From: Nitrosopumilus sp.
GTDB lineage: Archaea; Thermoproteota; Nitrososphaeria; Nitrososphaerales; Nitrosopumilaceae
Reading direction: 5' to 3'
DNA: 64,000 nucleotides
NCBI GenBank assembly: GCA_965207075.1
Contig: CBDBLO010000002.1
Coordinates: forward strand, 1,184,001-1,248,000
Shown here in pieces: positions 1 to 64,000 of the stretch (positions are counted from its first letter, which is position 1; the number at the start of each line of letters is the position of its first letter). The position numbers and the translations under genes are program-made. The notes beneath the pieces are model-generated. The model had not been told where the DNA came from, did not search any database, and saw nothing but the letters and a program-made list of their open reading frames with translations.

Positions 1-2
1 AC

Positions 3-431
3 CACAGCATACTCGGCGCCACACATATCCAAAGGTACGCATTCCTGCTGCACAAGCAGTGTCGCCGTGAACTGGACCGCATCGCCGCCGCGCATCCGGA
101 ACTTGCGTGGTACGACGACTGGGAGCCGAATTGGTCCGGCCCGTTCAGCCGCGGACTCAAAAACGACATGGACGCGTGCTTGCGCGGCGGCCTGGCGTTT
201 ACCCACACTCCAGTGGACACCATAGAGAGGCTCTTGGGGCAACGTGAGTACATGCTGTCCCGTGAGGGCAGAATCAAGTGGCGCAGCATGATGCACGCAT
301 TCCCACGCGAGGCGGAAGCCCTGCGCAAGAGGGTGAGTGGGTTGCAGAAGGTGGTATATGAACGGCTGCTTGAGGGGGTGTACTACGCGTACCCCGAATA
401 CACCAAACACGCCAGAGCCACGCCGGCTTAA
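3..431 (+). CDS. 5'-truncated YwgA/SocA(Panacea)-like protein, possible antitoxin
   Basis: Frame is open from the window edge: GATHIQRYAFLL..WYDDWEPNWSGPFSRGL..LLEGVYYAYPEY fits the G-x-T-x-x-Q-K/R..GPFS..VY..YPEY pattern. Confidence 0.5.
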   Translation, partial: HSILGATHIQRYAFLLHKQCRRELDRIAAAHPELAWYDDWEPNWSGPFSRGLKNDMDACLRGGLAFTHTPVDTIERLLGQREYMLSREGRIKWRSMMHAFPREAEALRKRVSGLQKVVYERLLEGVYYAYPEYTKHARATPA

Positions 432-454
432 ATCAGTCCGGCCGCACTGCTCGT

Positions 455-568
455 ATGGCGGACACAAACCACTGCTCGTCGTGCGGCAAACTACTGGAGC
501 CTTTCAAGTGCGCGTCCGACGGCAGGGGCGGCTTCCACTGTGCAAAGTGCGCCGGCTGGGAATCGTAA
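455..568 (+). CDS. 37-aa Zn-ribbon microprotein
   Basis: Read by hand: MADTNHCSSCGKLLEPFKCASDGRGGFHCAKCAGWES, two CxxC pairs. Confidence 0.5.
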   Translation: MADTNHCSSCGKLLEPFKCASDGRGGFHCAKCAGWES

Positions 569-601
569 GGTATGAGACTCGTAAAGGAATAACACGCGGC
601 G

Positions 602-754
602 TCAGTCCGAATAAAACCCCGCCGGCTTTGCAGAGTCAAACCCGCACCTCTTGCATACAAAGCGCCCGTCCGGGTTCTCCCGAGTCCTCTCCTCGCTCTC
701 TCTTGCCCCGCACCTCACGCAGAACACACGCCCGTCGCCAACCATGCACGCCAT
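602..754 (-). CDS. small Zn-ribbon protein (start uncertain)
   Basis: CVRC..CKRC pairs; minus-strand CTTTTAT box at 767-773. Confidence 0.45.
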   Translation of the reverse strand: MACMVGDGRVFCVRCGARESEERTRENPDGRFVCKRCGFDSAKPAGFYSD

Positions 755-1835: not shown

Positions 1836-2408
1836 CTATGCGATTCCCTTTACGGCAGCGAGGTCGGCGTATGCATGCCCCCCGCCCCCGGCGGCCTCCA
1901 CGCTCTTCTTGATCTTGAATTCGTCAACCCCCTGGATGCCGAACGGCTTTTCGGCCGCCCGTCCGGCCAGCTTCCTTAAGATTTTCTCGCCGGCGCCATC
2001 TGTCATCCGGAGTATGGTGATGTGTGGGACGAATGGAAAGTCGCGCCTGTATCCCAATGGTGACAGCGCGTCGGACACCTTTTGTGCCAAGCTGTGCAGC
2101 CCGGGGCCACCTCCGACCGTCTTCATGCCAATCCATACCACCCTCGGCTCCCCGGAGTCCGGGAACACCCCGACCTCGCCGCCCACCTGCAGGTCGAACG
2201 GGTCGAACTTGATCGCGGACAGGGCGTCCACGACGGACTGTTGCGCGTCGTCCGGGACGTCCCCGAGGAACTGCAGCGTGATGTGCAATTTTTCAGTGTC
2301 CTGGAGTTTGACGCCCCCGTGTTCCGGCGGCGCCAGTTCGGTCTGCAGCCTCCGTATGCCGTCGAGCACCGCGGGCTTGGTGATCTCCACCGCGACAAAG
2401 GATCTCAT
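1836..2408 (-). CDS. thpR: RNA 2',3'-cyclic phosphodiesterase (2H family)
   Basis: MRSFVAVEI start, two HxT motifs (LHITLQFLG, PHITILR), PRVVWIG; TATA box near 2429-2435. Confidence 0.92.
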   Translation of the reverse strand: MRSFVAVEITKPAVLDGIRRLQTELAPPEHGGVKLQDTEKLHITLQFLGDVPDDAQQSVVDALSAIKFDPFDLQVGGEVGVFPDSGEPRVVWIGMKTVGGGPGLHSLAQKVSDALSPLGYRRDFPFVPHITILRMTDGAGEKILRKLAGRAAEKPFGIQGVDEFKIKKSVEAAGGGGHAYADLAAVKGIA

Positions 2409-2525
2409 GACATGAGTGTAGGCTGTTTGATATAAGGCGCCTGCGCCCAAGCGGCCCGGCGGTATTATTCCGCCCTTTAATGCGACTCCCGCGTGTTCGT
2501 GTTGACGACTAGTTCGACAACAGCG

Positions 2526-2596
2526 GCCATGATCGTACAGTGGCAGTACAACCGGCTGTGATCCGGTGGACGCGGGTTCGATTCCCCCTCGTGGCC
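2526..2596 (+). tRNA. tRNA-His(GTG)
   Basis: Cloverleaf GCCATGA/TCGTGGC, arm ACCGG-CTGTGAT-CCGGT, TTCGATT loop, encoded G-1 at 2525 and C73; one T-stem mismatch. Confidence 0.88.
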
Positions 2597-2599
2597 TTT

Positions 2600-2671
2600 G
2601 CCCCTGTAGCTCAGCGGCGGAGCGGTCCCCCCGTAAGGGACTGGTCATGCGTTCGAATCGCATCAGGGGCT
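2600..2671 (+). tRNA. tRNA-Thr(CGT) with C33
   Basis: GCCCCTG/CAGGGGC, arm GTCCC-CCCGTAA-GGGAC, ATGCG-TTCGAAT-CGCAT, U73. Confidence 0.88.
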
Positions 2672-2674
2672 TTC

Positions 2675-2747
2675 GACCCCGTGGCAGAGCCAGGCAATGC
2701 GGGAGCCTGCAAAGCTCCATACGCCGGTCCGAGTCCGGCCGGGGTCT
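2675..2747 (+). tRNA. tRNA-Cys(GCA), variant T-loop
   Basis: GACCCCG/CGGGGTC, arm GGAGC-CTGCAAA-GCTCC, T-loop TCCGAGT, U73. Confidence 0.85.
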
Positions 2748-3305: not shown

Positions 3306-3327
3306 TACTTAACACTATACTATAACC

Positions 3328-3819
3328 ATGGGGTACTCTCATTACTGGTACTGGGGAAACCGGGTGCCAAAAAGCAAGATGGCCGCCGTGGCTGCCGACC
3401 TGCAAATTTTACGCCCGCGCCTAGAGCGCGAGATGGGCGTGCGGTTGGCGGGCAACCAAGGCAAGGGTGAGGCCGAAATCACCGACCAAAGGATACGGTT
3501 CAACGGACCGGAAAAATGTGGGCGCCAGACGTTTCTGTTCGACCCGCGCGAGGGCATGAAATTCGACAACTGCCAGGGGCTGTTCAACAGCTGCTCGACG
3601 GGGCGCCACCCGTACGACCTGGCAGTGACTGCGTGTTTGCTCGCCGCAAAGTACCACTTTGGCGCGCGCATCAGGATCGAGACCGACGGCGAGACCAAGG
3701 ACTGGGCCGACGCGGCTCGCATCATCGCCGAGGAGCTCGGGTACGGCATGGCCGTGGAAGTCCGGAAGTGCAGGGTCCTTTACGAGGCCGCCAAGCCGGT
3801 GCTGGAGGTGGCGGCCTGA
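3328..3819 (+). CDS. conserved mobile-element protein of unknown function (MGYxHYW family)
   Basis: MGYSHYW..IRFNG..TF..FNSCSTGRHPYDLAVTACL..TDG..W pattern recalled from plasmid/phage hypotheticals. Confidence 0.7.
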   Translation: MGYSHYWYWGNRVPKSKMAAVAADLQILRPRLEREMGVRLAGNQGKGEAEITDQRIRFNGPEKCGRQTFLFDPREGMKFDNCQGLFNSCSTGRHPYDLAVTACLLAAKYHFGARIRIETDGETKDWADAARIIAEELGYGMAVEVRKCRVLYEAAKPVLEVAA

Positions 3820-4487
3820 TGCCGTCCATGATGGAGCCGCCGGTTTCCGTCCAAAAGGACGCGCCGCGCAAGCACCACCACGACAAGCTGGTCGCGTGGG
3901 ACGTGGACAGCTGCATGGGGCAGTCCGAGTTCATGTGCGTGAACTGCGGCTCTAGCGGATTCAGCGTGCAGCTCGGCGGACGCGGATACGGACTGCACTG
4001 CCACTGCGGCGCGTCGTACTACATGTACACCTACAGGGGCACCGAGTACATCAAGGTGCTGGAGGACGACGACTGGGGGCGCATGGGCTTTGACTGCCCG
4101 CGCTGCAAGGCCGAGATGTGCCTCAGCACGCGCAGCCTCGACGAGGATCCGAAGTGCATGGAGTGCGGCAGGACGTGCACGTTCGCGGAAGCCAACGCGT
4201 ACCTAGAGTCCACCAAGCTCTACCATGCAGTGCCTCTGCAGGCCGGCGACGGCGAGCTGCTCGGCCGGGCGTCATACAACAACCTGATGGAGGCCGGCAG
4301 GAGCGCCTTTGGCGCGAGGTTCGAGTCCGTGCGCATCGACAGGGACGGACGGACGCCGGTCGGCATGCGCTTCGAGTATACGCGCGGCGAGAATCCCGGA
4401 CTGTCCGGGAGATTCGCGGGGCGTAGCGGCGGCGAGGAAAACCGCGCGCTGCTGGTCGAGCACCTCAGGCGGGAGGTTGAGGACTGA
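3819..4487 (+). CDS. multi Zn-ribbon protein
   Basis: CVNC, CHC, CPRC, CMEC; TGATG coupling at both ends. Confidence 0.65.
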   Translation: MPSMMEPPVSVQKDAPRKHHHDKLVAWDVDSCMGQSEFMCVNCGSSGFSVQLGGRGYGLHCHCGASYYMYTYRGTEYIKVLEDDDWGRMGFDCPRCKAEMCLSTRSLDEDPKCMECGRTCTFAEANAYLESTKLYHAVPLQAGDGELLGRASYNNLMEAGRSAFGARFESVRIDRDGRTPVGMRFEYTRGENPGLSGRFAGRSGGEENRALLVEHLRREVED

Positions 4488-4867
4488 TGCCGCTAATCCC
4501 ATCAAAGTACGTCGGCGGCATGCCCGACGGCTTTCTGCCGACCGAATACATGATGCTCCACCCGGACGGCAGGTGGCACCGCCTGAACGCATCCTCATCA
4601 GACGCGGCGATCGCCGCCGGCCGCGCGTCCGCTAGGACGTGGGTGCGCGAAGCGGCAGGCGAGGAACTGCAGCGGCACGAGGACGGGCTGCACACGCTGT
4701 ACACCGTCGACGACATCCACGTGGACGCGTTCGGCGATTCGTGCATCGAACTGCACGCGCTGTGGGAGATGTCGACCCGCGAGATATACGACGCGGTCCG
4801 GGCTGGCACGTGGCCAAATATGGCGCCGCGGGACGCGCCTAAATGCGAACCGGGGGTGGTGGCGTGA
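4487..4867 (+). CDS. hypothetical protein, paralog of 27562-27864
   Basis: Shared ML.PDG.W..AR..G..TLY.V..D.C.E...L.E.S pattern. Confidence 0.65.
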   Translation: MPLIPSKYVGGMPDGFLPTEYMMLHPDGRWHRLNASSSDAAIAAGRASARTWVREAAGEELQRHEDGLHTLYTVDDIHVDAFGDSCIELHALWEMSTREIYDAVRAGTWPNMAPRDAPKCEPGVVA

Positions 4868-7057
4868 TGGCAGACAACTTTACCACCGACCTCAACGACA
4901 ACGAGGTGCTGCGCAGCATCATCGAGGGGCTGGCATACGGCACCGAGTCCGACCGCATGGGCGCCATAGACCAGTACGAGCGCGGCCTGACCGACCTGCG
5001 GCGCAAGCACCTCGCCCTGCTGCAGGCCGGCCGCATCATCAGGGTCGCCGGCGACGAGATCAGCAGGCTGGACACCGGCACGGACACCGGCGACACCGAC
5101 GTGGACATGCTGCTGACGGACGTGCGCAACGTTTTGTCAAAGCAGGCAAAGCGCGTACGGGGGTTCAGGGGGGCGGTGGAATGATGCGCCACCCCGACCA
5201 GCCGAGGCCGACTCCCAAGGAGCTCGCCAAGGCGCACGACAAGCAGGGCATGTCCCACGAGACGACGGGGCAGATCAACGTGCTTGTACGCAAGTACGCC
5301 GAGCAGCAGACGACCGACGCGCTGATGCGGCTGTACTCTCGCGCCGCAAAGTGCGACACCGTCGACGCCGTCAGGCTCTGCATACGCGACGAGATCGAGG
5401 AGCACCTCGAGGCCCAGGGGTTGCTCTGATGCCCGCCGACACGATACTCGTGTCCTCCGACTCGGAGGGCTGGACCGGCGAGGCAACGCACGAGGACGCC
5501 GAGGACGAGGCAAAGTCGCTGTACGACGACCCGGAGGGGACGTGGGCCGAGGTGACCGTATACCGTATACCGGCCGGCAGGCTGGTCGACGGCTGGTCCG
5601 GCAGCCACCGCGCGAGCATACTGCGCGACCAGGAGAGCGCGTCGGAGCTGGACGAGTACGAGGTATCGTCGTGGTCAGGCCACGTGGACGAGGCCGAACC
5701 GGACTGCAGGCAGAGCCCGTACCACGACCCGCATCCTGACGGACACGACTGGACCGCGACCCGCGCGGTGGAGGGCGGCCTGGAGGAGAACCCCGGCGTG
5801 TTCGGCAACGGCGGAGGCGTGGTCATTCATACACACTGCACGAGGTGCCCCGCCACCCGGACGGAGGACACGTGGGCGACCGATCCCAGTGACGGCAGCC
5901 AGGGCCACACCGTGGTGACATACGGGAGGCGCGACGACTGATGCCTGACGCGCGGACCTACGCGGGACAGCGCCTCGCGGACAACGCGGACGCGGCGGCC
6001 TTTGCTGGTTCGGCGGCGCCCGTTCCGGCGCCAGCAGTAAAGGCGGCCGGCGGGCCTACGGTATATGTAATGCACTGCACCAAGTGCCTGTCCGAATGCC
6101 ACGTGAGCGCCTATGAGCCGCGTACCATCGGCATGTTCAACCGGGACATGGACGTTTCCATCATAATGTTCGAGCACAAGAACCATGGCCTCGGGCCGTG
6201 CCCGCACAAGCAGTCCATAACCGTAGGGATACTGGATATGGTGAGCATAACGCGCGAGTTCGTCCGGCATACCGTCGACGAGTACGGCGACCATTACATG
6301 CTGAACACCTACTTTGACAACGGCTCCATATCAGGGGGCGGGCTCTTGAAGGAGGAGATTCCGCCGGGCATGCCGATACTGGAAGCGGGGGAGGGCGGCG
6401 AGTGATGGCCGGAGGAATCCCGCTGATCGTAAAGTGCATGTCCTGCATGCAGTGGATGCCCAGGTCAGACGTGTATTTGCCGACGCGCAAGGACGAGCCG
6501 GTGCCGCCCTGCTCGCACGGCAAGGTGGAAATCGAGATATGCGGCAGGTGCGGGCACGCCGAGCACCTACACAAGGGCGGCCCAGGGGACCTGAAGGGGT
6601 GCGTCATATGCAACATGACCGCACGGCCGGACAGGCCGCCGGCGCCGTGCTGCGCCAGGATGCTCAAGATGGCGACCATGACGGCGATGATGGTTATAGC
6701 GGTGGAAACGGCCGCCCGTGGCGGCGGGGGGCCGGTGTTCTGATGCCCGTGTCGTCCTACTGCAATGAGGGAGAGCACAGGGCCTGCTCCAACAGGGTGT
6801 TCTGCGAGGAGGCCGGGTGGGTGATCTGCCGCTGCCTGTGCCACGAACTACAAAAGGTGCTGATCGTAGACATCCTGCCGCACCTGAATGTGATCGAGGC
6901 GGAAACCCACCTCATCGACAATGAGGAGTGCGACAAGCACGTGGCCGTTGGTAACATCCTGTCCGAACTCGACTTCGCCAGGCGCGCCCTGGCGTTCCCC
7001 GGCATCGACACGGACTACAAGGAGCCTGACGCAGCACGGGAGGCTGGGAATGGGTGA
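4867..7057 (+). other. six coupled small hypothetical CDS (4867-5184, 5181-5429, 5429-5941, 5941-6405, 6405-6743, 6743-7057), several Cys/His-rich
   Basis: Consecutive stop/start overlaps; 5429-5941 shares HDW..GG..G..HC..C with 23224-23910. Confidence 0.65.
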
Positions 7058-9922: not shown

Positions 9923-10426
9923 TCAGGCGAACTCCTCAAGCGGCCGCAGCTGCAGCCGGTCCAGCCGGCGCTGTCCCGCAAGCATGCGCCGGTCGTCCGC
10001 CGTCTTGATCTTGTGGCACTTGCTGCAGAGCGTCTGCAAATTATCACGGTCCCACGGGTCGCCGCCGTTGCATATGGCAACGCGGTGGTCGACGTGCAGC
10101 AGGTACGGCACGTACCCGCCGTCCGGACCGGGACCGTCGCCGCACTGCACGCACCTGTACTGGTCGCGGTTCATCACGGCGTACCTGACGGTCGGCCAGA
10201 ACTCGAACTGCTCCCACCACATGTGGCGGTGCTTTTTGCTGCACGCCCACGCGTCCTGGTACCAGCGCAGCCCGCGCGTCATGGGCTCGGCGCCGCACCA
10301 GCACTTGCCGTCGTGCAGATTGCGCAGCGCGGTCTGCAGGTCCATGCCCTCCGGCCAGTTCCACACGATGTGCTCGACCGGCCGGCCGCCGCTTGCAACC
10401 AGTGAGGGCGTCTCATGCCTGTACAT
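9923..10426 (-). CDS. HNH endonuclease
   Basis: RDQYRCVQCG..LHVDHRVAICNGG..NLQTLCSKCHKIKT. Confidence 0.88.
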   Translation of the reverse strand: MYRHETPSLVASGGRPVEHIVWNWPEGMDLQTALRNLHDGKCWCGAEPMTRGLRWYQDAWACSKKHRHMWWEQFEFWPTVRYAVMNRDQYRCVQCGDGPGPDGGYVPYLLHVDHRVAICNGGDPWDRDNLQTLCSKCHKIKTADDRRMLAGQRRLDRLQLRPLEEFA

Positions 10427-51843: not shown

Positions 51844-51928
51844 GGGCCGTATGGGCTCGGCGGCTTTTAAGCCCGCGGCGGGGTCCTGAGCTGTCGTCGT
51901 TTTTATTGGACGGCGCCGTTATACGGCC

Positions 51929-52861: not shown

Positions 52862-52886
52862 AACACCACGCGTGTATACCAACAAG

Positions 52887-53051: not shown

Positions 53052-53102
53052 ACCGCATGCACGAACTTTCATACTTTTAAGGAAGGACGCAGTTTAACCT
53101 GC

Positions 53103-54035: not shown

Positions 54036-54088
54036 AGGACAGTGTAGCCCTGCACATGTTAGGTGTTATGCGCCGGCGCATGCACCGG

Positions 54089-54793
54089 TCATTGATGCCT
54101 CACTGCCACCAGTTCCCACTGCCTCCACGCGCCGGTCTCCGGCGGCCTCCGTTCCTCCGACACTTCGTCCGGGTCGCCCAGCACGCCGAACCCCGCCAGG
54201 TGCAGCCTGTACTCGAGCTCCCGGTCCGTGAAGAAGTGGATGGGGAGCCCGGCCTTGGGGCCGTCGTCGTACAGTATGGTGAGGCCGCCGAGTGAATTTT
54301 TCTCGATTACCTGGTGCCGGCGGTATATGTCTGTGCGCGCGGAGTTCACCCGCAGGAACAGCAGGCCGCCGGGGCGCAGCACGGCGGCCGCGTGTTCGAG
54401 GTATCTGCGGACCGTCTGCCCGTCGCCGTGCTGGAACGCCTGTATGGATATTACGTAATCGTGCTGGACGTCCGGGCTGACGGCGAGAAAGTCTTCACAC
54501 GACACGCGTCCGGCGCATTCGGGGGACCTTGCAAGCAGCCGCTGCAGCCCGGCTTCGGACACGTCGATGCCGCGGAGCCCCGGAAGCGCGGCCGCCAGCG
54601 GTATGTAGTTGCGGCCGTTGCCGCACCCGGCGTAGAGGCCACGCCCGTCAGCCAGTCCGCGCCCGCGGAGTGTGTCGATGATCGTGCTAACGAACGGCAC
54701 GGGCGGCTCGCCCTCGTACCGGCCCGATCTGTACTCCGCGTCCCAGCGCCGCGCCATGCGGGCGCCGTCACTATCGTTGTCCCGGCAATCCAT
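54089..54793 (-). CDS. class I SAM-dependent methyltransferase
   Basis: WDAEY, YAGCGNGRN, GIDVS, LRPGGLLF. Confidence 0.85.
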   Translation of the reverse strand: MDCRDNDSDGARMARRWDAEYRSGRYEGEPPVPFVSTIIDTLRGRGLADGRGLYAGCGNGRNYIPLAAALPGLRGIDVSEAGLQRLLARSPECAGRVSCEDFLAVSPDVQHDYVISIQAFQHGDGQTVRRYLEHAAAVLRPGGLLFLRVNSARTDIYRRHQVIEKNSLGGLTILYDDGPKAGLPIHFFTDRELEYRLHLAGFGVLGDPDEVSEERRPPETGAWRQWELVAVRHQ

Positions 54794-54930
54794 GCCACGG
54801 CCATGCACATGACTGCATAAAACAGTCATCATAATACTTGGGGCCGCCGCCTGCACCGCGCGCCTGGCGGCAGAATCGAAAAGCACACTCCAGATCACAT
54901 TTTAAGGGAGGTGGACGGAGGGGTTGCTGT

Positions 54931-55449
54931 TTGGCAGGAAGCGACGGGCTTGACGGCATCAATGTCTTTTCTGACGACGACAAGCTGAAGATCCTGGGCG
55001 AGCTGCTCGGCAACAAGTCAAGCAGGGACATCATAAGGCTGCTCATCTGCAGGGAGTGCTACACGAACGACATTGCAACCACGCTGAACATGCGGTCGAA
55101 CCTGGTGGTCCACCACCTCAAGAAGATGGAATCGATTGGCTTGGTGGAGGTAAGGGAAGGGAGGCTGACCCGGAAGGGGCAGACGCACCGGTTCTTCAGG
55201 ATCAGGCCGGGGATCCTGGTGCTGCCGGAATCCGCGGAAAGCGGCAGCCTCCTGAAGAGGCTGGCCGGAGGGGTGGTAAAGTTTGCGGCGGTGGGTGCCG
55301 CGGCCGCGCTGTCCTACTTTTTAGTCGACGCGCTGCGGGCGACGGAAGGCATAGTACCGCAGACAAAACCCCTGGATCCGCTGGTCTACTCGCTCGTCGT
55401 GGTTGTCGCGGGTCTGGCCGTAATGTATTATAAAAAAAGGACTAGGTGA
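54931..55449 (+). CDS. ArsR-family winged-helix regulator with C-terminal TM segments
   Basis: KLKILGELLGNKSSRDII..LVVHHLKKMESIGL; TTG start after TTTAAG box. Confidence 0.8.
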   Translation: MAGSDGLDGINVFSDDDKLKILGELLGNKSSRDIIRLLICRECYTNDIATTLNMRSNLVVHHLKKMESIGLVEVREGRLTRKGQTHRFFRIRPGILVLPESAESGSLLKRLAGGVVKFAAVGAAAALSYFLVDALRATEGIVPQTKPLDPLVYSLVVVVAGLAVMYYKKRTR

Positions 55450-56569
55450 AATCCCAGGACAAGCCCGGGATCTCATCTAGTATGTTTGCCTGTTTTGAGT
55501 ACGTGGATAATATGCCGTTGTACCCGACGTGTGTTCCCTTGAAGTTCTTTGACGGGACGTAGCTGTACACCGGTGCGCCGCTGTCTCCATCCTGTCCGAC
55601 ATAATTGGTGGCCGCCATGTCGTTTATCCAGACGCCGTCGACGTAGTTGCTGTATGACGCGATGACCACGACACCTGACACTCCACGCGTGACATGTCCT
55701 TCCATATGTACGCCGTCAAAGAGCGCCGTGTATCCTGCCACGTTGACGTCGAGGTTGTTGTATATGCGGTCGCTGATGTTTTCATCCGCATTCACGAACA
55801 GCGCGTCGGCGGTGCTTCCGGCACTGTAGCTGTTGGCGGTTACCGTGCCGATGTGGTCCCAGTAGAAGTAGTTTGGCTGGCCGACGGTTTCACCGGTGTT
55901 GCCGCCGGTGCAGTGTCCCGCAGTGACAAAGCCTGTCTCTCCGTTGCGCTCCGCCTTGAAGCCAACGCTGCAAGCCCCGTGCAGGGTTGAGATTTTGACC
56001 CCACCTTGCGCTGGTTCGCAGTCTCCAGTCTGGGAGCATTGCGGCGTTGTCGCCGCCATGGGTTGCACTATTATGGACACGTCGTTGCCCACGAGTTCCC
56101 TGACCTTGCTCAGAACACCCGCTGAGTGCTCGGCAAGCTTGTCGGGAAAGACGTTGACAACGAGATTGTTGGAGGTGTCCACGTACAGGCCGGATACCGG
56201 AAACTCGGCCGTAAAGTCGTCAAACGACTTGGAGGCCAGATTGGACGTGATGTACCCGGATACCAGGTCCCTCTTGTCCAGCGCTGCTTGTCTTGCCGTG
56301 TTGTCTACCCCCTGCTCGTAGGAGGACTTGATCTGCTGCGCCTCCTCGACCAATGCGGTCCTCTCTGCGTCCGTTATGTTCTCGTTGTGTAGTTGCTGGG
56401 CGATCTCTGTCATCCGCTGTACGTCCGGCGTGTCGAATGTCGGCGGCTCGGTTCGTATCGAGTCCTGCCCGGGGTTCTGTGCCGTCACGTCCTGCGACAG
56501 CGCGACCGTGAATCCGACCAGCCCGACGGCCAGCATCGCTACAAGGATCGTCGTTGTAGTTTTCTTCAT
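55442..56569 (-). CDS. secreted S1 (alpha-lytic/chymotrypsin-like) serine protease with pro-region
   Basis: Signal peptide, GFVTAGHC, ADAL, GDSGAP triad motifs. Confidence 0.88.
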   Translation of the reverse strand: MKKTTTTILVAMLAVGLVGFTVALSQDVTAQNPGQDSIRTEPPTFDTPDVQRMTEIAQQLHNENITDAERTALVEEAQQIKSSYEQGVDNTARQAALDKRDLVSGYITSNLASKSFDDFTAEFPVSGLYVDTSNNLVVNVFPDKLAEHSAGVLSKVRELVGNDVSIIVQPMAATTPQCSQTGDCEPAQGGVKISTLHGACSVGFKAERNGETGFVTAGHCTGGNTGETVGQPNYFYWDHIGTVTANSYSAGSTADALFVNADENISDRIYNNLDVNVAGYTALFDGVHMEGHVTRGVSGVVVIASYSNYVDGVWINDMAATNYVGQDGDSGAPVYSYVPSKNFKGTHVGYNGILSTYSKQANILDEIPGLSWDFT

Positions 56570-56605
56570 TGAACTGCGTTAATGTGAAGTCGTAATAAGA
56601 AAATG

Positions 56606-56657
56606 CTCAATTTGGATTGAATGAGTTTGCCATGTTCGACTCAATCCGGATTGAATG
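56606..56657. promoter_or_regulatory. two palindromic operator-like sites upstream of the protease
   Basis: CTCAATTTGGATTGAATG and CTCAATCCGGATTGAATG; TCAATCCGGATTGA is a perfect palindrome. Confidence 0.65.
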
Positions 56658-56771
56658 CTCCCGCTTGTCATCTTATACTGATGCCATGATGGTGGCAAAG
56701 CCGCCAACACTCCGAAGTGGCTGCCGCGGGTGGAATACACTATGCCGCCTTGACCACCCTGACTTTTCGAC

Positions 56772-57710
56772 TTAATCACCGGGACGGGGCCCGGGCAGGT
56801 GAGCCTGTTCAACCGCGGTGAAGTGCTTCGGGTGCGTCGGCACGTGCCTGATGGCGTCCAGTACGGGACGACGCGGTGTGGGCTTCCTGCGCCGCGCGGA
56901 GCGCACAAGTTTTGACGCTAGAGAGTACATGCGGCGGGCCGAGCGTGTGGCGCGGTCGACGTCCTGCGGCTCGTACGTCCGGGACCCGAGCTTGATGCGG
57001 CGGGACCCCCAGTGGTGCAGGGCGCCGAGGTCGAGGTCCGGCGAGGGGCGGCAGTCCGGGGGGAGCAGGCCGTACAGTACGCGCTGGTCGCGCGCGTACG
57101 GGAACATGATGCGGCGGGCCAAAAGACACGCCTTCATGGAGTGGCCGATCGAATCATACAGGGTGTTGCACGCGGGCTCCAGGTTGAGCCCGAGGTTGTC
57201 CGTACTTCTCGCCCACGACCTGCCGGCGGACAGGCGACGCGCGGAGATGCGCAGGTACCAGTCGGCGCACCACGCGGTGTCGCATGTGTCGGGGCCGTTG
57301 TGGCCGTTTGCGGGGCAGCCGCCTACTCCTGCCGGCAGCAGTGGGTCCAGCGCGCGGCACGCCACGGGGGAGCGGTAGAGTATGCGGCTTTCGCCTTTGT
57401 GGTAGTCGCGGAGGGCGTGGTACTCGGGCGTGCCGTAGAGGTTGGCATTGCGCCCTATGGTGCGGGGGGTGTGCTCGAAGACCGTGGCCTGTTTTACACC
57501 GCCGCGCGTGCCGGCCAAAACGTTGCACAACGACTCGTAGAACTTCTTGGAGCCCGTGCGCGTTATGCACAGGATGTCCAAGTCGCTGTCGGGGGACTGG
57601 GTGTTGCGGACCTGCGAGCCGAATATGATGAACAGCAGCAGTCCGGCGGGCGGGTCGGAGAGCAGGCCGTTCCTGATGGACCTGACGGATGCGGCGGCCC
57701 GGCGGTTCAC
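56772..57710 (-). CDS. MNT-HEPN-like fusion copy 3
   Basis: FGSQVRNTQSPDSDLD, NLYGTPEYHALR, SMKACL..FPYARDQRVL. Confidence 0.75.
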   Translation of the reverse strand: MNRRAAASVRSIRNGLLSDPPAGLLLFIIFGSQVRNTQSPDSDLDILCITRTGSKKFYESLCNVLAGTRGGVKQATVFEHTPRTIGRNANLYGTPEYHALRDYHKGESRILYRSPVACRALDPLLPAGVGGCPANGHNGPDTCDTAWCADWYLRISARRLSAGRSWARSTDNLGLNLEPACNTLYDSIGHSMKACLLARRIMFPYARDQRVLYGLLPPDCRPSPDLDLGALHHWGSRRIKLGSRTYEPQDVDRATRSARRMYSLASKLVRSARRRKPTPRRPVLDAIRHVPTHPKHFTAVEQAHLPGPRPGD

Positions 57711-57875
57711 GTGTGGTATGCGGGGCGTTTCATATTAACGCCCGCGGCGGGGGCCTGACGGCGGTGTCGTCGTTCCTGCGGCGCATTTCACGGCCATGCG
57801 CCAGTTCCGCATAAAACGGTCCGCACCGGTACCGATGTGTCTGGACTTAAATACGGAGCATTGTGATATGCACTG

Positions 57876-57995
57876 ATGTCCCGCAAATGTCCCAGATGTG
57901 GCTTCGAGTATCCACCGGAACTGCCCGAGAGCGCAGTAAGGATACTCATGGAACATCATGATAGACAGGCGGCCCACAGAAAAGGGACTGCCTGA
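57876..57995 (+). CDS. 39-aa C2H2-type microprotein
   Basis: Read by hand: MSRKCPRCG..MEHHDRQAAH; CTTAAATA box upstream. Confidence 0.5.
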   Translation: MSRKCPRCGFEYPPELPESAVRILMEHHDRQAAHRKGTA

Positions 57996-58142
57996 ATCTT
58001 ACTGTCATAACGCCACAACCGTATCACAAATTCACAAGTGCTGTGCCGGAGCGCGTGATCTGCCGGCGGGTACCGCGCCGCGACGCCCTGCCAAGCTTCG
58101 CGGGGTACGCAGTTGTTAAATGCGCGTGCGACAAGCGCGTGT

Positions 58143-58469
58143 ATGGTACGGCGGCGGACCGAAGGCTTGCGTTACTCCCTGCCGCTGGACAGGCTCTTCC
58201 CGGGCCACCCGAACGCCAGGATAATGGACTGCCTTTTGTCCAACCACGGGTTAGGGCAGTCGGTTGAAAACGTGGTGGGGTTCACCGGGCTCAAAAGGGA
58301 CGAGGCGGTGTCCGGGTTGGAGTGGCTGGCGGGGGAGAAGTTGATCAGCACGCGCGGCGGCAACTACGTGGCCGAACCCGGAACAGGTTCCGCCAGGCTG
58401 GACGGGCTGTACGCGTATTATCGGGCGACTGTGGGGTCAAACCTGGACAACGCGTTTCCGCCCGGGTGA
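58143..58469 (+). CDS. winged-helix DNA-binding protein
   Basis: LDRLF..ARIMDCL..TGL..L..L...LI..Y pattern. Confidence 0.6.
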   Translation: MVRRRTEGLRYSLPLDRLFPGHPNARIMDCLLSNHGLGQSVENVVGFTGLKRDEAVSGLEWLAGEKLISTRGGNYVAEPGTGSARLDGLYAYYRATVGSNLDNAFPPG

Positions 58470-58518
58470 TGACACAGCGCCCGGGGCGCGGGCGCCGCTC
58501 TGTTCAGGTCCCAGTAGG

Positions 58519-58833
58519 TTAGGCGGGAACCTCCGTTATTCTGTACCGCCTGGAGGAGTGGCAGTGCGTGCACCGCGTTGATACGTGCTCGCCGTCCGCC
58601 CCGTCGTGGTGCAGTATGCCGCCGCACCTCGGGCACGTGAATACGATCATCTTCTCCTTTGCGCAGCTGTCATGCTCGACGGCCTCCGCGACTTCGTTGA
58701 TCGTCATGCTCCTGCAGACGTCCCTCCGGCGCGTGACTTTCTCGTTCATCTCCGTGCCGCATCTGAAGCAGAACGGCTCGCGCGTGCCCTCGGTCTCCGT
58801 GTGGCACCTTGGGCATTGGTGTACGCTCATCAA
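58519..58833 (-). CDS. double Zn-ribbon protein
   Basis: CPRC..CFRC, CPRC..CTHC. Confidence 0.65.
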   Translation of the reverse strand: MMSVHQCPRCHTETEGTREPFCFRCGTEMNEKVTRRRDVCRSMTINEVAEAVEHDSCAKEKMIVFTCPRCGGILHHDGADGEHVSTRCTHCHSSRRYRITEVPA

Positions 58834-58927
58834 TTATGGCCACTTGTATTTTTTAAAAACGACGGAACCGGAGACGGAACCCCCCCCCGGAAGGACGAGT
58901 TATAACAAAGGCGTGCGTATAATATGC

Positions 58928-59890
58928 ATGGAGAACCACCACGCGGTGCTCGGCGTCAGCCGGGGCGCGGACCGCAGCGAGATACGGGAGGCGTTCCGCC
59001 GCCGGGCGCTGGAGTGCCACCCGGACGTCAGCGGGGGCGATAGTGGTGAGTTCATGGCCGCGAGGAGGGCGTACGAGGCGCTCGTGAATCCCGTGGTGAG
59101 CAGGGAGGACGAGGCCGCCAGGCTGCACGCGGAAATGCTCAGGGCCGAGAAATGGTGCGCCGACCCGTCGTCGTTCGGGACGGCGGACTTTGGAGATGCG
59201 ACGTTTGAAAAGTATGGCGGGTCCGTCAGGATTGCGGGCAGGCTGAGGGCCGGCACCCTGAGGTTCGGGGGGCGCGTCCTGGTGTATGGCGACGTGTCGA
59301 GCCCGCCGTGGGGCGGGCCGCATAGAACGGTGCTGCAGGGAGGCGGCGGCGTGGACGTGCGCGGCAGCATACTGAACGGCGCGGAGGTCAGGGGGCGCGA
59401 CGTCTTTGCGGTCGACGTGTTTGGACTGAGGCGCGTGGAAATGGACGCGGTGCGCGTGGGTGTGAGCTGGGACGCGTCGCTGCACGCGAGCATAACTGCA
59501 GACGGGGGGAACGCGGTGTTGCGCAACTGCACGGGACCTGCCCGCATACGCGGGGACGTGGTGGACGTCTGGGACGTGCGCGACGGGTGCGTTCTGGAGG
59601 GGCGGCGTGTGGTGGTGCGCGGCAACACGGTGACGCACGACTGCACCATACGGGTGTCGGAGTCTCTGTCGTTCACGACAGGCCAGATGCTCGGGCTTTC
59701 GGACAACTGCACCATATCTTGGGACGGCGGCGAGGTGAAGCTGGGGCGGCTGAAGACGTACAGGACGGGCCGGCTGCCGGGCCTCGATGGCGCCCAGGGC
59801 ACCATGGTGGGCGGCGGGTTTGTCATGACCGTGCAGATGCTGCAGCACGCGGCCGCAAGGCGCGGATGGAACCCGTTTACACGCGGCTAG
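58928..59890 (+). CDS. J-domain (DnaJ) protein with C-terminal beta-helix-like region
   Basis: VLGV..EIREAFRRRALECHPD..AYEAL; V/G-rich repeats downstream. Confidence 0.8.
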   Translation: MENHHAVLGVSRGADRSEIREAFRRRALECHPDVSGGDSGEFMAARRAYEALVNPVVSREDEAARLHAEMLRAEKWCADPSSFGTADFGDATFEKYGGSVRIAGRLRAGTLRFGGRVLVYGDVSSPPWGGPHRTVLQGGGGVDVRGSILNGAEVRGRDVFAVDVFGLRRVEMDAVRVGVSWDASLHASITADGGNAVLRNCTGPARIRGDVVDVWDVRDGCVLEGRRVVVRGNTVTHDCTIRVSESLSFTTGQMLGLSDNCTISWDGGEVKLGRLKTYRTGRLPGLDGAQGTMVGGGFVMTVQMLQHAAARRGWNPFTRG

Positions 59891-60760: not shown

Positions 60761-60886
60761 AGATACGGTCTCGGTATCTGCGCGTTTGCATGAAAACCTG
60801 ATGGCAGGTTTCGAGAGACGTGTGTCATGGTCCCGATTGAGGAATGTGTCGACCGACGGGTGAAGAACTGAGCAGTCACAGCCACG

Positions 60887-61633
60887 TCAGGACATGCCGC
60901 CCGCCATAGTCACAAACACGGCCACCAGTACCAGCACTGCCAGAAACACCACGTTCATCGGGGCGGCCGTTACGACCAGCCTGCCGACCGGCACGCTGTC
61001 CCAGTCGCGCCTGTCAAAGTACGTCGTACGCATTATGCTGAACGACCCGCGCCCGTCCTCCCACACCGGCACGGCGAACTTGTCCCACGGGCGCTTGTAG
61101 TGGGCGGCGAACAGGCAGAACACCCTCGTCCACGGCCTTGCCCGCGGGTACCCTGCAAACAGCGGCGGCACGCCCCTGGCGCCGCGGCGGCAGTCCACGG
61201 CCTGCCATACGTTCATCACGAGGTTGTACGACACGATCAAAAAGGCGGCCGCCGTGATGGCCAGCAGTGCGACCGCGACGGGGACAAAGTACACGCCGCC
61301 GTATGACGGCAGCGTGACGGATACGACCAGCAGTATGATGCAGTCACCGGCAGCCAGCCCCCTGACCCGCCACATCACCAGTGCGATGGTTATGCCGGCG
61401 GCCATGCTGAATATCGCGTTCAGGTCCTGCCACCCCCCGGACAGTAGAAACATTGCAAGCCCCGCGCCGCCGATCATCGCGTAGTGGCGGTCCCGTCCCA
61501 TGAGTTCGCGGTATTTCAGGTCCCCGTAGGATTCCACTGCGAGTAGTCCCAGCACCAGCGCCAGCCTGCCATATTCCAGGTACTGCGGCAGCAGGACGGC
61601 CGCCGCGCCGTCAGCAGGAAGAAACGGGGGCAA
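60887..61633 (-). CDS. A24 prepilin/prearchaellin peptidase (FlaK/PibD-like)
   Basis: Multi-TM; catalytic Asp motifs GDLKYRE and LAAGD. Confidence 0.78.
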   Translation of the reverse strand: MPPFLPADGAAAVLLPQYLEYGRLALVLGLLAVESYGDLKYRELMGRDRHYAMIGGAGLAMFLLSGGWQDLNAIFSMAAGITIALVMWRVRGLAAGDCIILLVVSVTLPSYGGVYFVPVAVALLAITAAAFLIVSYNLVMNVWQAVDCRRGARGVPPLFAGYPRARPWTRVFCLFAAHYKRPWDKFAVPVWEDGRGSFSIMRTTYFDRRDWDSVPVGRLVVTAAPMNVVFLAVLVLVAVFVTMAGGMS

Positions 61634-62210
61634 CCAGTATGCGCCTCATCTGTTCTGACGTCGATTCGACCCAGGCATCGATCTCTACCAACTTGTCGTG
61701 CAGCCCGGCCAAGCGGTCCACGGCGCATTCCACGCGCCGGTGCCTGCACCTTGGCAGCAGCCCTACGGCCCGTAGGTGTGATATGGACTTGCGAACCTCA
61801 CTGTCCCCGCGCGGCCAGTCTACCAGGTAGTTCTGTATTGTGCGCATTGGGACGGTCGCCGGCTCCACCGGTGTTGGCTGCTCCTGTCCTTGCCTTGACA
61901 CCGCGCGCGCAAACCGGTACACCACGGACAGTACGCATACGTCGAAGAACCTCAGTCCCAGCCCGTCGGCCATGAGGAGCCCCGTGCCGACCGGCGTGAG
62001 CCTGGGCGCCCCACACCCGTCACTCCACTCCATCAGTCCGCCGTCCACGAGCCTCCGGACCACGTGATCGCCCGCCTCGCCCCGCTCCGCCTTTCCAATG
62101 TCGTTGAGTACGGCGCGCCCCATGCGGCGCCCATGCTGGGACAGCACGACCACGGCCTTTCTTGCGGCCGCGGCGGTGTCAGTACTCCCGGCGCGTTCCC
62201 GCCCGCTCAT
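61611..62210 (-). CDS. hypothetical protein, probable tandem winged helix
   Basis: RRLVDGGLM..RLTPVG and VRKSISHLRAVGLL. Confidence 0.5.
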   Translation of the reverse strand: MSGRERAGSTDTAAAARKAVVVLSQHGRRMGRAVLNDIGKAERGEAGDHVVRRLVDGGLMEWSDGCGAPRLTPVGTGLLMADGLGLRFFDVCVLSVVYRFARAVSRQGQEQPTPVEPATVPMRTIQNYLVDWPRGDSEVRKSISHLRAVGLLPRCRHRRVECAVDRLAGLHDKLVEIDAWVESTSEQMRRILVAPVSSC

Positions 62211-63739
62211 TTGTAGATCACCACCCCCCGGCTCCTGCCGTCCTTCTTCTTCTCCTGCTGGCGCAATAACTTTGCCAGGCCCGCCGGACTGTCGAACTTG
62301 AACACGCGCACAGCATTACCATCACCGGAACCGGCACCGTTCCCGGCCGCCGCACCGCCGTCTGACTGCGACGCCACGGCGGCCGCAGTGCCTGGCAGTC
62401 CGAGCCACTCGGACGCCTGCACGGGCATCAGGTACGCCCCCCTCCTGGATGCGGCGTCCCCGACCTCCCGGAGCACGGTAACCTTCTCGTGTTCGTCGAC
62501 GACCGACACGCGGCGCGTGCGCACGTCCACCAAGTACGGTGGATGTTTCTTGTTGCCCGGTATGACCACGGCATCGCGCGAGTTCTGCAGCAACACTTGG
62601 TCGGCAGGGCCTTGTGGCTTCTTGGCCGGCGGCTGCGCGGCAGTACCCGATCCCGCCGGCGCCCGGCCTCGTGAGCGCTGCCCGCCGCCCGCAGGGCTGT
62701 CTGGCCCTGCATCATCCTCGTCCTCGTCCTCTTCACCTCCCGACTTTGCCACGCCCCGTCCAGTACCACTGCCGTTGTGTCGACCGTCTGTGATCGCCCC
62801 CGACCCGGAGCGGAACCTCGGTGTGTCGGCGGCAACCTCTATCTCCTCCGGCGCCGGCCAGCTGAACTTCACGTCACTCACCGCCCCGTGGCGCACCAGT
62901 TGCGACACGTGCTCGGCGAACTCGCCCTGCAGACCGGACGGCACCTTTGATATGGCATGCGGTATGTAGTACGGCAGCACGAACCTGGAGAGCCTGTTTC
63001 CCAGCCATTCGCACAGCTCTGACAGCTCTTGCGAGGCGTCCTCGTCGAGCTTCAGGTTGATGAACTTCTGGTCCACGGTGTCCCTGCACGCCCTCATCAC
63101 GTCCTCCACCGCGCGTCGAGCGCCGTCCGCCTCCGACTGCGATATGGTGCGGCCGTCCTGGGCTGCCCCGCCGTGGGACAGCGCCTGCAGGTGCCTGACG
63201 ACGCGTCCCAGGCGCATCGGGTCGTACCCCGTGGGCCGCTGGTTGGCCACGGTGTGCCGCGCCAAAAAGTCCGACTCGTCGGCGCATTGTACGACGATGC
63301 ATTCCACCTCCTTGACGCCACCCGACCTCGAGTACCCGCGGTACATGTCGCCGTCGGCCAGCAGGTAGTACGACTTGGGAACGTACTCGGTAAGTTCTGG
63401 CACGTTGTCTGCGACGCCCCCGTTCTCCTTAGCCCTGGTACTGACGCGTCCGTTGCCGCCCTTTGCACTGCTTGCTGCATACACCGCGGGGACGCTGGCA
63501 TCCCGGGCAATCCAGTATCCCACCCTTATGGGAGGCAGCGTCCCGGCGCGCGCCGCCGGACCGGAGGACATGTTCGCATATACGGCCACCTGTTTGGCGA
63601 TCGGCACTGACACGTCCATCGGGTGCATGACGATGTCCTTGAGCCTGACCTTCCGCCTGACCTCGCCGCCGTCCACCAGTACGCGCGACGCCTCGACTGC
63701 CGCTGCGGCGGGCACCAGTCCTTTCACATTGCCGCTCAT
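62207..63739 (-). CDS. protein with divergent ParB/Srx-like N-terminal domain
   Basis: VRLKDI..LPPIRV..YYLLADG..KEVECIV..N; canonical GxxR absent. Confidence 0.4.
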   Translation of the reverse strand: MSGNVKGLVPAAAAVEASRVLVDGGEVRRKVRLKDIVMHPMDVSVPIAKQVAVYANMSSGPAARAGTLPPIRVGYWIARDASVPAVYAASSAKGGNGRVSTRAKENGGVADNVPELTEYVPKSYYLLADGDMYRGYSRSGGVKEVECIVVQCADESDFLARHTVANQRPTGYDPMRLGRVVRHLQALSHGGAAQDGRTISQSEADGARRAVEDVMRACRDTVDQKFINLKLDEDASQELSELCEWLGNRLSRFVLPYYIPHAISKVPSGLQGEFAEHVSQLVRHGAVSDVKFSWPAPEEIEVAADTPRFRSGSGAITDGRHNGSGTGRGVAKSGGEEDEDEDDAGPDSPAGGGQRSRGRAPAGSGTAAQPPAKKPQGPADQVLLQNSRDAVVIPGNKKHPPYLVDVRTRRVSVVDEHEKVTVLREVGDAASRRGAYLMPVQASEWLGLPGTAAAVASQSDGGAAAGNGAGSGDGNAVRVFKFDSPAGLAKLLRQQEKKKDGRSRGVVIYK

Positions 63740-64000
63740 TTGGTCAGATCCCCCCCGGACATCCCCGCAGTGCACAAGAACACGTCGCATTCATCTATCA
63801 ACCCGGACAGACCTAAAGCCAGAAACATAAACCACGACGGCAGCATGACAATGACGCCGAACACGCCGAAATACGCAACGCGGTTCCATCTGTCGCCGTG
63901 TCTGTTAATTCCCTTCGTGCCGGCAATCAACCCAATAACTAACAAGTATATCATGTGCAACGTAAAAGCTGCAAATACGAAATCGAAAGGGTTCAGTGGA

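Follow-up and report, generated by a model that had tools for sequence, protein, structure and literature searches.

Thaumarchaeal integrative and conjugative elements (ICEs), with NitEve-E6, NCAV2-E1, NCAV2-E2 and NitIsl-E3 as the described examples closest to the locus considered here, carry a tyrosine recombinase, use an intergenic target with short attachment (att) sites, in some cases down to 8 bp, and range in size up to 140 kb with a median of 64 kb, as set out in the main text of Krupovic et al. 2019 (PMC6563490). According to the same main text, the VirB4 and VirD4 pair comes with TadC, a prepilin peptidase, an ATPase of the FlaI/PilT type and small pilin-like proteins, the operon of a ParB-like gene starts with a TFIIB paralogue, NCAV2-E1 and NitIsl-E3 encode a PrimPol-S3 helicase replication protein, and the backbone is non-syntenic between elements. 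The stretch of DNA analysed here (the window; 64,000 nucleotides, C2:1184001-1248000, C2 being the 2,185,281-bp contig of an assembly of two contigs) is, with high probability, the middle part of an ICE that measures 150.9 kb and is integrated in an ammonia-oxidising archaeon's chromosome.

Apart from size, the likeness extends to most of these features, and the backbone is again non-syntenic from one element to the next; the prepilin peptidase is probable here, the pilins are candidates judged by eye, the TFIIB paralogue is putative, and the ParB-like gene is assigned by position only. The differences lie elsewhere. The element exceeds the published size range; tRNA genes, which appear in that main text as integration targets, are here carried as the element's own; nicotinamide, ribonucleotide reductase and ArdC, for all of which the element has genes, have no occurrence in the main text; and ‘zinc’ occurs there once, in a provirus figure legend, with some 70 zinc-ribbon proteins in coupled operons that share an operator not being described in it. 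Relative to that main text, on which supplementary annotations may bear, three things are new: the size, a phage-like self-sufficiency kit that includes tRNAs of the element's own, and seemingly co-regulated microprotein operons over about 100 kb; nothing relevant was found in the literature searched on microprotein arrays of such a kind in archaeal ICEs. A further resemblance, by description only, is to the conjugative plasmids of Sulfolobales, for which the accounts in PMC6563490 and PMC9905601 give VirB4- and VirD4-like ATPases, no recognisable relaxase and many small open reading frames (ORFs) without assigned function, as here, though these are free plasmids of hyperthermophiles, unlike the integrated element. 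The mechanism of conjugation in ammonia-oxidising archaea has, according to PMC9905601, not been studied, and conjugation in these organisms is known just from genome reading.

Borders of the insertion

By its marker genes, an archaeal 16S rRNA gene (1459 bits) and archaeal amoA (387 bits, with none of 14 control genomes positive), the host is an ammonia-oxidising archaeon, which agrees with the Nitrososphaerota-like host that had been proposed from the window alone. The window is the interior of an integrated element of 150,897 bp, counted with one repeat copy (C2:1127781-1278677, or window -56,220 to 94,677), with a guanine-plus-cytosine (GC) content of 63.3% compared to 60.0% for the rest; for the window itself and the contig the values are 64.2% and 60.3%. 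The insertion sits in intergenic sequence between DRG GTPase and HAD-type genes and is bounded precisely. On its left the DRG GTPase gene (C2:1126621-1127739) is the last ordinary gene, and on its right the HAD-type gene (C2:1278886) is followed by a gene for a 669-aa protein and, farther on, by a DNA-ligase-like gene, EF-1alpha and S10, all three identified from their translations by eye. The DRG gene and the 669-aa gene share a contig in 14 of 15 congeners, at a distance of 0.86-3.3 kb, and are split between contigs in the 15th; in the host genome 151.9 kb separates them.

A 10-bp direct repeat, CTATTGGATT, is present at C2:1127771 and C2:1278668 and is the only exact repeat of at least 10 nt between the two short junction regions; in a wider att search the exact repeats of at least 12 nt between both ends were only chance-level 12-15-mers. 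Public contigs from two sequencing runs, X6, whose host flank is nearly identical, and X8, which is about 95% alike, agree with the left flank up to C2:1127780, where the left repeat ends. From there on they match the sequence that directly follows the second repeat on its right, X6 at 28 and X8 at 24 of the 30 positions compared by eye. Their continuation from flank to flank therefore identifies them as empty sites, while the occupied left junction is bridged by one contig of run X1. Nucleotide alignment of the junction to the congeners ends at the gene starts, the intergenic DNA being too diverged. A candidate inversion at C2:1130220-1130251, raised by contig breaks with loose ends, was rejected, the breaks coinciding with a repeated promoter motif and being read as repeat cross-matching.

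The proposal, in the original prediction, of a large archaeal mobile element is thus borne out by the insertion, its empty sites and the adjacency of the flanks in the congeners. Core genes do stand on both sides of it, but element borders exist and are sharp, so that this continuation does not refute the proposal, and within the window itself there are, as had been noted, no ribosomal or other housekeeping operons. Of the three forms then suggested, an extrachromosomal megaplasmid is discarded, as the window is within a 2.19-Mb contig in mid-chromosome between conserved chromosomal genes, the conjugative element is retained, and the large virus, which is taken up below, is not.

A 433-aa tyrosine-integrase gene begins 52 nt inside the left repeat. 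In a profile search of the PDB with this protein and four of its paralogues, archaeal XerA (4a8e) was the sole match (E-value 8e-5), and the five other integrase paralogues or fragments in the genome each lie no more than 170 nt from a tRNA gene, the vicinity of tRNA genes being the classic location of integrases. That the left-edge gene encodes the tyrosine-recombinase integrase can accordingly be put forward with moderate confidence.

Backbone genes and sibling elements

Comparison of the 256 element proteins with their own genome by tblastn revealed two sibling elements, B and C, at ~C2:710000-761000 and ~C2:1717900-1784000 (about 50-66 kb), and a backbone of 26 genes that the element and its siblings have in common, at roughly 30-75% identity and in shuffled order. 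The remaining 230 genes are accessory, and occupy about 100 kb or about two-thirds of the element. The replication and transfer core had been predicted to be absent from the window; that holds for the integrase, VirD4, PrimPol-helicase, VirB4, T2SSE ATPase and TFIIB paralogue, which are outside it but in the same element, as are ribonucleotide reductase, Tmk and a tRNA-Met, and does not hold for TadC, an 1141-aa surface protein, the ParB-position gene and the probable prepilin peptidase, which are inside.

Among the genes outside, the 1342-aa VirD4/TraG-type protein (TrwB_AAD_bind 38 bits, TraG-D_C 32.3 bits) and the 704-aa VirB4/HerA-type ATPase (AAA_10 40.5 bits, DUF87 27 bits) score above the respective Pfam cut-offs, the T2SSE-type ATPase is matched by T2SSE at 63.8 bits, and the PrimPol-D5 helicase by Prim-Pol at 47.6 bits plus D5_N and DUF5906. 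Four small membrane proteins adjoin VirB4, pilins being judged by eye from hydrophobic N-termini, and the surface proteins of the element are of 1141 and 1252 aa. Further element genes are for a secreted SNase-domain protein, several DNA methylases and, at the right end, an Hjc-like resolvase. Inside the window, a TadC-like membrane protein (610 aa; T2SSF 50.2 bits) and the 1141-aa surface protein, which has hydrophobic stretches at its N- and C-terminal ends, are encoded on the plus strand at 17593..22885, with paralogues 54-58% identical in the two siblings.

A second backbone operon, at 60887..63739 on the minus strand, encodes, in the gene order of siblings B and C, three proteins: one of 510 aa in the ParB position, one of 199 aa and, at its end, the probable prepilin peptidase. 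It is headed by a putative TFIIB paralogue of 285 aa whose gene is beyond the window (C2:1249436-1250293), and the order of TFIIB paralogue and ParB-position gene is kept across the three elements. The putative TFIIB has an N-terminal zinc ribbon with a sub-threshold match to Zn_Ribbon_TF; its AlphaFold2 model has a mean predicted local distance difference test score (pLDDT) of 57.6, and Foldseek against the PDB gave a best E-value of 8.5e-4 at a template-modelling score of ~0.25, TFIIB/Brf chains, from initiation complexes or stand-alone, taking the first five places and most of the top 23. The ParB-position protein has no Pfam or PDB match and an unusable AlphaFold2 model (pLDDT 35.3). For both of these proteins phmmer and paralogue profiles against the PDB yielded nothing significant, and running Pfam on all paralogues added nothing.

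The VirB4 gene is intact in the element, where the integrase, VirD4, TadC and PrimPol genes are also open, and in both siblings it carries one in-frame TGA. The element is a recently mobile insertion with an intact integrase gene and intact conjugation and replication genes such as have been published for archaeal ICEs. Its borders are known to the base, close strains have the site empty and two decaying siblings allow comparison, all of which makes it a good candidate for observing excision and transfer. VirB4 homologues at 24-34% identity are found in 37 of 121 sampled family genomes, the host genome included.

Several more integrated elements are probably present in the host genome. Besides the integrase paralogue beside tRNA-Leu-CAA with which the sibling at ~C2:1717900-1784000 starts, paralogues or fragments are at C2:449677-450885, 583973-584170, 1912431-1913741 and 2129338-2130639, with Arg-TCT, Ser-GCT, Lys-TTT and Lys-CTT as tRNA neighbours; extra VirD4-like genes are at ~1.92 and 1.94 Mb, and a TFIIB/ParB-position pair is at 2.055 Mb.

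Microprotein operons of the accessory part

Genes were called by dynamic programming over non-overlapping ORFs, with codon log-odds trained on 683 ORFs of at least 400 aa from the host genome. The 122 genes that touch the window, 121 of them wholly inside, make 85.6% of its bases coding. Their products are short, with a median of 109 aa for the 121 compared to 212 aa for the other 2049 contig genes, and 54 of the 121 do not exceed 100 aa. They are rich in Cys (3.27% of residues versus 1.07% elsewhere on the contig), and a zinc-ribbon pattern, here two CxxC or CxxxxC knuckles 5-40 residues apart, is present in 44 of 121, as against 109 of 2049 (5%) elsewhere on the chromosome. Of the 99 same-strand neighbours in the window, 58 are joined by an overlap of 1 or 4 nt (a few of 8-14 nt), the corresponding figure elsewhere being 172 of 1262. 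A profile of the contig in 20-kb steps confines the small genes, high Cys and zinc-ribbon patterns to ~1.12-1.29 Mb, and 90 of the 121 genes have no other match within the host genome. The tiny coupled zinc-finger ORFs of the original prediction, and the archaeal promoters and tRNAs (four of them) noted with them, are accordingly real features of the window.

The longest co-directional run in the window is of 47 genes. On the minus strand, array I (22886..28665) comprises 17 small genes of an 18-gene co-directional run, the 18th being that for HMG-CoA reductase, with a family of three zinc-ribbon paralogues at 25142-26296, and arrays II-III (33325..51147) comprise about 50 co-directional and mostly coupled genes, many for zinc ribbons, together with split N6-methylase-like fragments and two membrane paralogues. 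On the plus strand, an eight-gene coupled operon (3433..6743) encodes proteins of 82-222 aa, three of them zinc-ribbon, and those of its members that were tested have no Pfam or PHROG match. Over the whole element the arrays form at least six blocks, on both strands and interleaved with backbone genes. The roughly 230 accessory products are mostly small and unique, and 71 are zinc ribbons; the element's proteins are for the most part mutually unrelated, just 39 of 256 falling in 18 paralogue clusters.

Translation signals were tallied for the whole element. A Shine-Dalgarno core (GGAGG, GAGGT or AGGTG), complementary to the 3' tail of 16S rRNA (...GATCACCTCCT), is at -18..-5 in 52 of 99 coupled genes as against 9 of 125 first genes of transcription units, whereas an A/T-rich hexamer starting -30..-26 from the ATG is found for 39 of the 125 first genes, with other 5-nt bins having at most 6. 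Leaderless first genes with Shine-Dalgarno-led internal genes are the archaeal pattern. The accessory operons are leaderless and TATA-driven, with their internal genes coupled by overlapping stop and start codons and a Shine-Dalgarno core embedded in the gene upstream.

A shared promoter motif consists of a TTTATAAA box some 27 nt ahead of the ATG with the inverted repeat AACCTA..TAGGTT on either side of it. It stands at 28663..28711 (minus strand) and again at 33718-33766 and 49929-49977 of the window, and a fourth copy lies 54 kb farther left, at C2:1130226. These are the four sites in the genome with at most 8 mismatches in 32 nt, all are inside the element, and the operons concerned are up to 103 kb apart. 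From at least four operon heads having one palindromic operator over the TATA box we infer a common switch, for which the palindrome is the candidate operator.

Related arrays exist elsewhere in the genus. Scanning of species genomes with a three-row alignment of the zinc-ribbon family led to a 30-kb contig (L025) of a congeneric metagenome-assembled genome (MAG). The 20 kb of it examined has 54 genes with a median of 86 aa, 24 of them zinc-pattern, a Cys content of 4.6%, the same 1-nt overlaps and no backbone gene. Matches to it are found for 19 element proteins, about 15 of them from window genes, in scrambled order, and 15 reciprocal-best pairs at 32-84% identity were obtained, 14 of which allowed the ratio of nonsynonymous to synonymous substitution (dN/dS) to be computed. 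All 14 have values of 0.13-0.82, and by this measure the genes common to element and L025 are under purifying selection. The three-member zinc-ribbon family is present in 3 of 401 sampled family genomes, the host genome included, and its profile recovers, among 1.84 billion proteins, 159 representative clusters at E-values up to 1e-3 and 23 at up to 1e-10, the ten that were looked up all being metagenome proteins without a name. On the combined strength of the coupling and Shine-Dalgarno statistics, the L025 pairs with their dN/dS, and the 159-cluster family, the microprotein genes are judged real. Small window ORFs of at most 100 aa also have GC of 0.59, 0.51 and 0.83 at the three codon positions (GC1, GC2 and GC3), similar to long genes, which is weak support as the caller itself selects for high GC3.

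Some further observations touch on these arrays and their relatives. The call at 49717-49959, on the strand opposite to the 47-gene run, is likely an artefact because the matching gene in L025 is on the other strand, and the run would be longer if so. An 82-aa ORF at 49683-49931 on the minus strand starts directly after the shared promoter motif and has two homologues at L025 operon heads with a common SDVRPQGR...CPxC stretch; it, rather than the plus-strand call, is probably the real gene. A pattern CxxCGH-x(3-5)-H ... C ... CxC-x(2)-F/W was seen by eye in at least ten otherwise unrelated microproteins, including those at window 13256-13465, 33441-33584, 45002-45256 and 43206-43466 and at C2:1137587, 1139270 and 1277023, and the four of its carriers run against Pfam had no family match. 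The zinc-ribbon family scan also gave a second locus (L026), in a bacterial MAG, at 48% over 33 residues. In a relative of another genus, with a GC content of 38%, a 40-kb region (G039:C1:1449001-1489000; L037, L038) has homologues of ArdC (39.5%), SNase (50%) and PrimPol-helicase (26%) and one member of the zinc-ribbon family, so that the accessory gene pool reaches past the genus; the region is ~97 kb from a VirB4 homologue, and the zinc pattern is in just 2 of its 100 crude ORFs. Run X8, despite its empty site, has contigs ~90-97% identical to two large zinc-ribbon genes (C2:1130424-1132080), from which it follows that related array genes are elsewhere in that community. When 17.9 kb of array DNA was compared with 300 family genomes, only chance-like matches of 36-79 nt were obtained. 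A homologue in the Protein Atlas gave only weak leads to small viral proteins (score 0.91, recognition below the usual level), which carry no weight here. Haloarchaeal zinc-finger mu-proteins (PF23137, HVO_0758) are likewise small with paired Cys knuckles, but are single chromosomal genes and not mobile-element arrays; the HVO_0758 match (E-value 0.03) is sub-threshold and generic zinc-ribbon models are all below cut-off.

Within the element the zinc-ribbon pattern is in none of the 26 backbone genes, all 71 instances being among the 230 accessory ones, and in the siblings it is in 0 of 48 and 1 of 63 genes, with Cys at 1.0% and 0.9%. The microprotein operons are therefore accessory to one element and not a trait of the ICE family, and to describe the element as ‘built around’ them, as had been done at first, was an overstatement. 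The same figures, along with the 50-66 kb size of the siblings, the 20-kb L025 array lacking backbone genes, the phage type of several cargo genes, and the published nesting of NitEve-E7 inside NitEve-E6 (PMC6563490, main text), would suit a composite, in which an ICE backbone of ~50 kb absorbed one or more other mobile genomes, virus- or plasmid-like, that brought the arrays, PrimPol-helicase, tRNAs, NadV, RNA ligase and exonuclease, with the arrays belonging to a second element, of a different and so far unrecognised kind, riding the ICE. This origin is rather unlikely. The left-edge integrase is the sole match to its family inside the element, its paralogues all being outside, and Pfam Phage_integrase has no other match there, though that model scores even this family below cut-off. 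The distribution of the arrays in blocks mixed among backbone genes on both strands, the same promoter motif on operons 103 kb apart, and the presence in the MAG of L025 of VirB4, at 69% and 76% identity on other contigs, also speak for a single element.

Cargo, proposed roles and rival readings

Of the genes named in the original prediction, those for ArdC-N, TadC, LigT/ThpR, HMG-CoA reductase, NadV and RNA ligase are all recognised by Pfam, the prepilin peptidase scoring below its cut-off. A cluster of tRNA genes, His-GTG, Thr-CGT and Cys-GCA, is at 2525..2747 (plus strand), and tRNA-Arg-GCG at 32192..32268 (minus strand), as found by both ARAGORN and Rfam. In global alignments of 72-77 nt the first three have 52, 50 and 47 positions identical to the host copies, and the Arg tRNA has 58; with the Met tRNA just outside the window, all five duplicate host anticodons, at 41-58 identical positions in alignments of 71-77 nt. 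The divergence of the tRNAs from host copies, with the GC offset, supports a foreign origin. Next to the first cluster, on the minus strand, is a LigT/ThpR 2',5'-RNA ligase-family phosphoesterase (1836..2408; PF02834, 78.7 bits; host paralogue at C2:172442, 42% identical), and on the minus strand near the Arg tRNA are HMG-CoA reductase (28927..30060; 279.6 bits; host copy at C2:2112957, 46% identical), the nicotinamide phosphoribosyltransferase NadV/NAMPT (30731..32125; NAMPT 159.8 bits), which is 45-48% identical to NadV of large phages (160-340 kb), and a phage-type RNA ligase with an OB domain (32270..33325; RNA_ligase 48.6 bits, PHA02142; phrog_968 E-value 1e-34), which is 31-34% identical to jumbo-phage ligases of the CcrColossus type. 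For NadV and the RNA ligase no host counterparts were found in the genome, and LigT, HMG-CoA reductase, a phosphoribosyltransferase, ribonucleotide reductase and Tmk are diverged doubles of host genes (41-58% identity). Archaeal ICEs can carry a self-sufficiency kit like that of jumbo phages, with tRNAs, nicotinamide adenine dinucleotide (NAD+) salvage, RNA repair and synthesis of deoxynucleoside triphosphates (dNTPs).

The life cycle that may be proposed is one in which the element excises by its recombinase, would replicate through the PrimPol-helicase, would have its own TFIIB direct transcription of the transfer-operon genes, would pass its DNA, driven by VirB4 and VirD4, in pilus-assisted mating, and would re-integrate at the short 10-bp att site. 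For the accessory part, a plausible reading, though one held at rather less than an even chance, is of a programme for establishment and counter-defence expressed from the common operator on entry into a new cell. ArdC and orphan methylases would counter restriction, the own tRNAs with LigT and RNA ligase would counter cleavage of tRNA and other RNA, NadV would counter NAD+ depletion, ribonucleotide reductase and Tmk would supply dNTPs, and the zinc-ribbon microproteins might act on host functions as inhibitors or as regulators that bind nucleic acid. Counter-defence by NAD+ rebuilding has been published for phages (bioRxiv 10.1101/2024.02.11.579819; PMC13464706). In the element the Nampt step alone of the NAD+ route was seen, and a nicotinamide mononucleotide (NMN) adenylyltransferase was not noticed, no search for one having been made. 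A functional analogy is offered by the early regions of large phages and by the islands of anti-defence genes with which conjugative plasmids of bacteria begin their transfer in the leading region (PMC11541004), where small co-oriented genes are likewise densely packed near ArdC-type genes; in contrast to those islands, the array proteins match no known anti-defence family and ArdC-N alone is recognisable in the element.

In a fuller and more tentative version, which is doubtful as a whole, the arrays would be an operon-organised arsenal of ~70 unrelated zinc-ribbon and ~150 other small proteins under one operator, a phage-like ‘early programme’ by which a new host would be taken over or disarmed, drawn from a gene pool shuffled among elements of the genus and lying largely outside protein-family databases. 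The accessory part offers, in any case, ~230 proteins that are short, conserved and orphans in the databases, with a simple promoter in common. Should some of them indeed inhibit archaeal defence systems or transcription, few if any earlier factors of this sort would be known for the phylum.

A number of points tell against these interpretations and are best considered together. The att core is just 10 bp, and the odds of a chance 10-mer match in the compared regions are ~0.1; it is the empty-site contigs that make the core credible. The integrase scores 22.3 bits with Pfam Phage_integrase, below the cut-off of 27.1, and the prepilin peptidase 21.2 bits with Peptidase_A24, below 26.5. The ParB-like label of the 510-aa protein is a candidate one, by gene order alone. 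No relaxase or origin of transfer (oriT) was identified, no search aimed at a relaxase having been made; a relaxase is also absent from published archaeal elements, for which transfer of double-stranded DNA is held possible (PMC6563490, main text). An excised or circular form was not seen in the public runs, all of them used as contigs. As to the microproteins, none of the ten scanned with Pfam has a family above cut-off, four having sub-threshold generic zinc-ribbon matches and the best anti-defence match, to Lar, being sub-threshold at an E-value of 0.0024; PHROGs gave nothing for the array proteins tried; and a word-indexed search with a 263-aa array protein returned only itself. Since tblastn finds for that protein a homologue in L025 at 38-41% identity, the blank reflects the sensitivity limit of the search. 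The dN/dS values are rough, the genes being GC3-rich with a proportion of synonymous differences (pS) of ~0.55, and the counter-defence view leans on analogy with phages and bacterial plasmids.

That the arrays would instead serve defence or exclusion, for the host or the resident element, and not counter-defence on entry, is improbable but has some attraction. Defence genes are commonly carried by mobile elements, and among the arrays are an Mrr-type nuclease, nucleotidyltransferases, a Fic/Doc pair, HNH nucleases and a methyltransferase. With PADLOC, however, ten window proteins, no array microprotein among them, gave partial-domain matches and no complete defence system. A greater improbability attaches to the element being a fixed island, an old ICE no longer mobile and kept by the host for its cargo, much of which duplicates host functions and could be domesticated. 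The lack of a circular form among the contigs would fit, but the site is empty in close strains, VirB4 is intact here where both siblings have it interrupted, the integrase, VirD4, TadC and PrimPol genes are open, and GC and tRNAs are still unlike those of the host, all of which is more in keeping with an ICE that has moved recently. A large provirus, though the own tRNAs, NadV, RNA ligase, exonuclease, ribonucleotide reductase, Tmk and many tiny ORFs of the element do resemble large phages and the kits of jumbo phages in particular, is hardly credible given a full conjugation gene set, no PHROG match for 7 of 10 window proteins tried, and no match genome-wide to Terminase_6N (PF03237), Phage_capsid (PF05065) or Phage_portal (PF04860), controls being positive in 4-5 of 14 genomes in this test for a head-tail virus with one model per function, other capsid types not having been searched.

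Other cargo in the window is more scattered. Two tandem HNH endonuclease paralogues, 51% identical (Pfam HNH 34 bits), are at 9923..10931 on the minus strand, and a 38-aa ORF coupled to a Fic/Doc-family protein (Fic 54 bits) forms a toxin-antitoxin-like pair at 14701..15224 on the plus strand. A phage-type PD-(D/E)XK exonuclease (15246..16142, minus strand; phrog_298 E-value 4e-53; PDDEXK_1 27.8 bits) precedes the ArdC-like anti-restriction protein (16634..17419, minus strand; ArdcN 25.3 bits, cut-off 22.6). The stretch 51205..59890 holds a mixture, recognised by Pfam, of a membrane-anchored Mrr-type nuclease, three nucleotidyltransferase paralogues, an S-adenosylmethionine (SAM) methyltransferase and an ArsR-type regulator, along with a secreted 375-aa protein and a DnaJ-domain protein. 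ORFs of 128 aa (35038-35424) and 161 aa (37082-37567), with two zinc-ribbon genes between them, resemble the N-terminal part of N6-adenine DNA methylases, the 982-aa Eco57I-like gene at C2:1164599 among them, and look like methylase fragments or minimal domains.

Attention is drawn, finally, to two kinds of repeat. A 70-bp palindrome of perfect spacing lies beside ArdC at 16476..16545 and recurs twice, within the element and nowhere else in the genome: at C2:~1152150-1152230, after VirD4, and at C2:~1278473-1278545, some 130 bp short of the right end. Candidate roles for the three copies are as partition sites, as a transfer origin or as terminators. At 959-1821 an inverted repeat of 39 nt, 97% complementary, has arms at 959-997 and 1783-1821 with 785 nt between them, a stretch that could be a small inserted or invertible cassette. 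Three small genes are between the arms, including one for a 49-aa protein like those of the ribbon-helix-helix (RHH) type, and a 107-aa protein of that stretch is encoded by a 12-nt tandem repeat (1292-1505) that gives tetrapeptide repeats of the GDV type.

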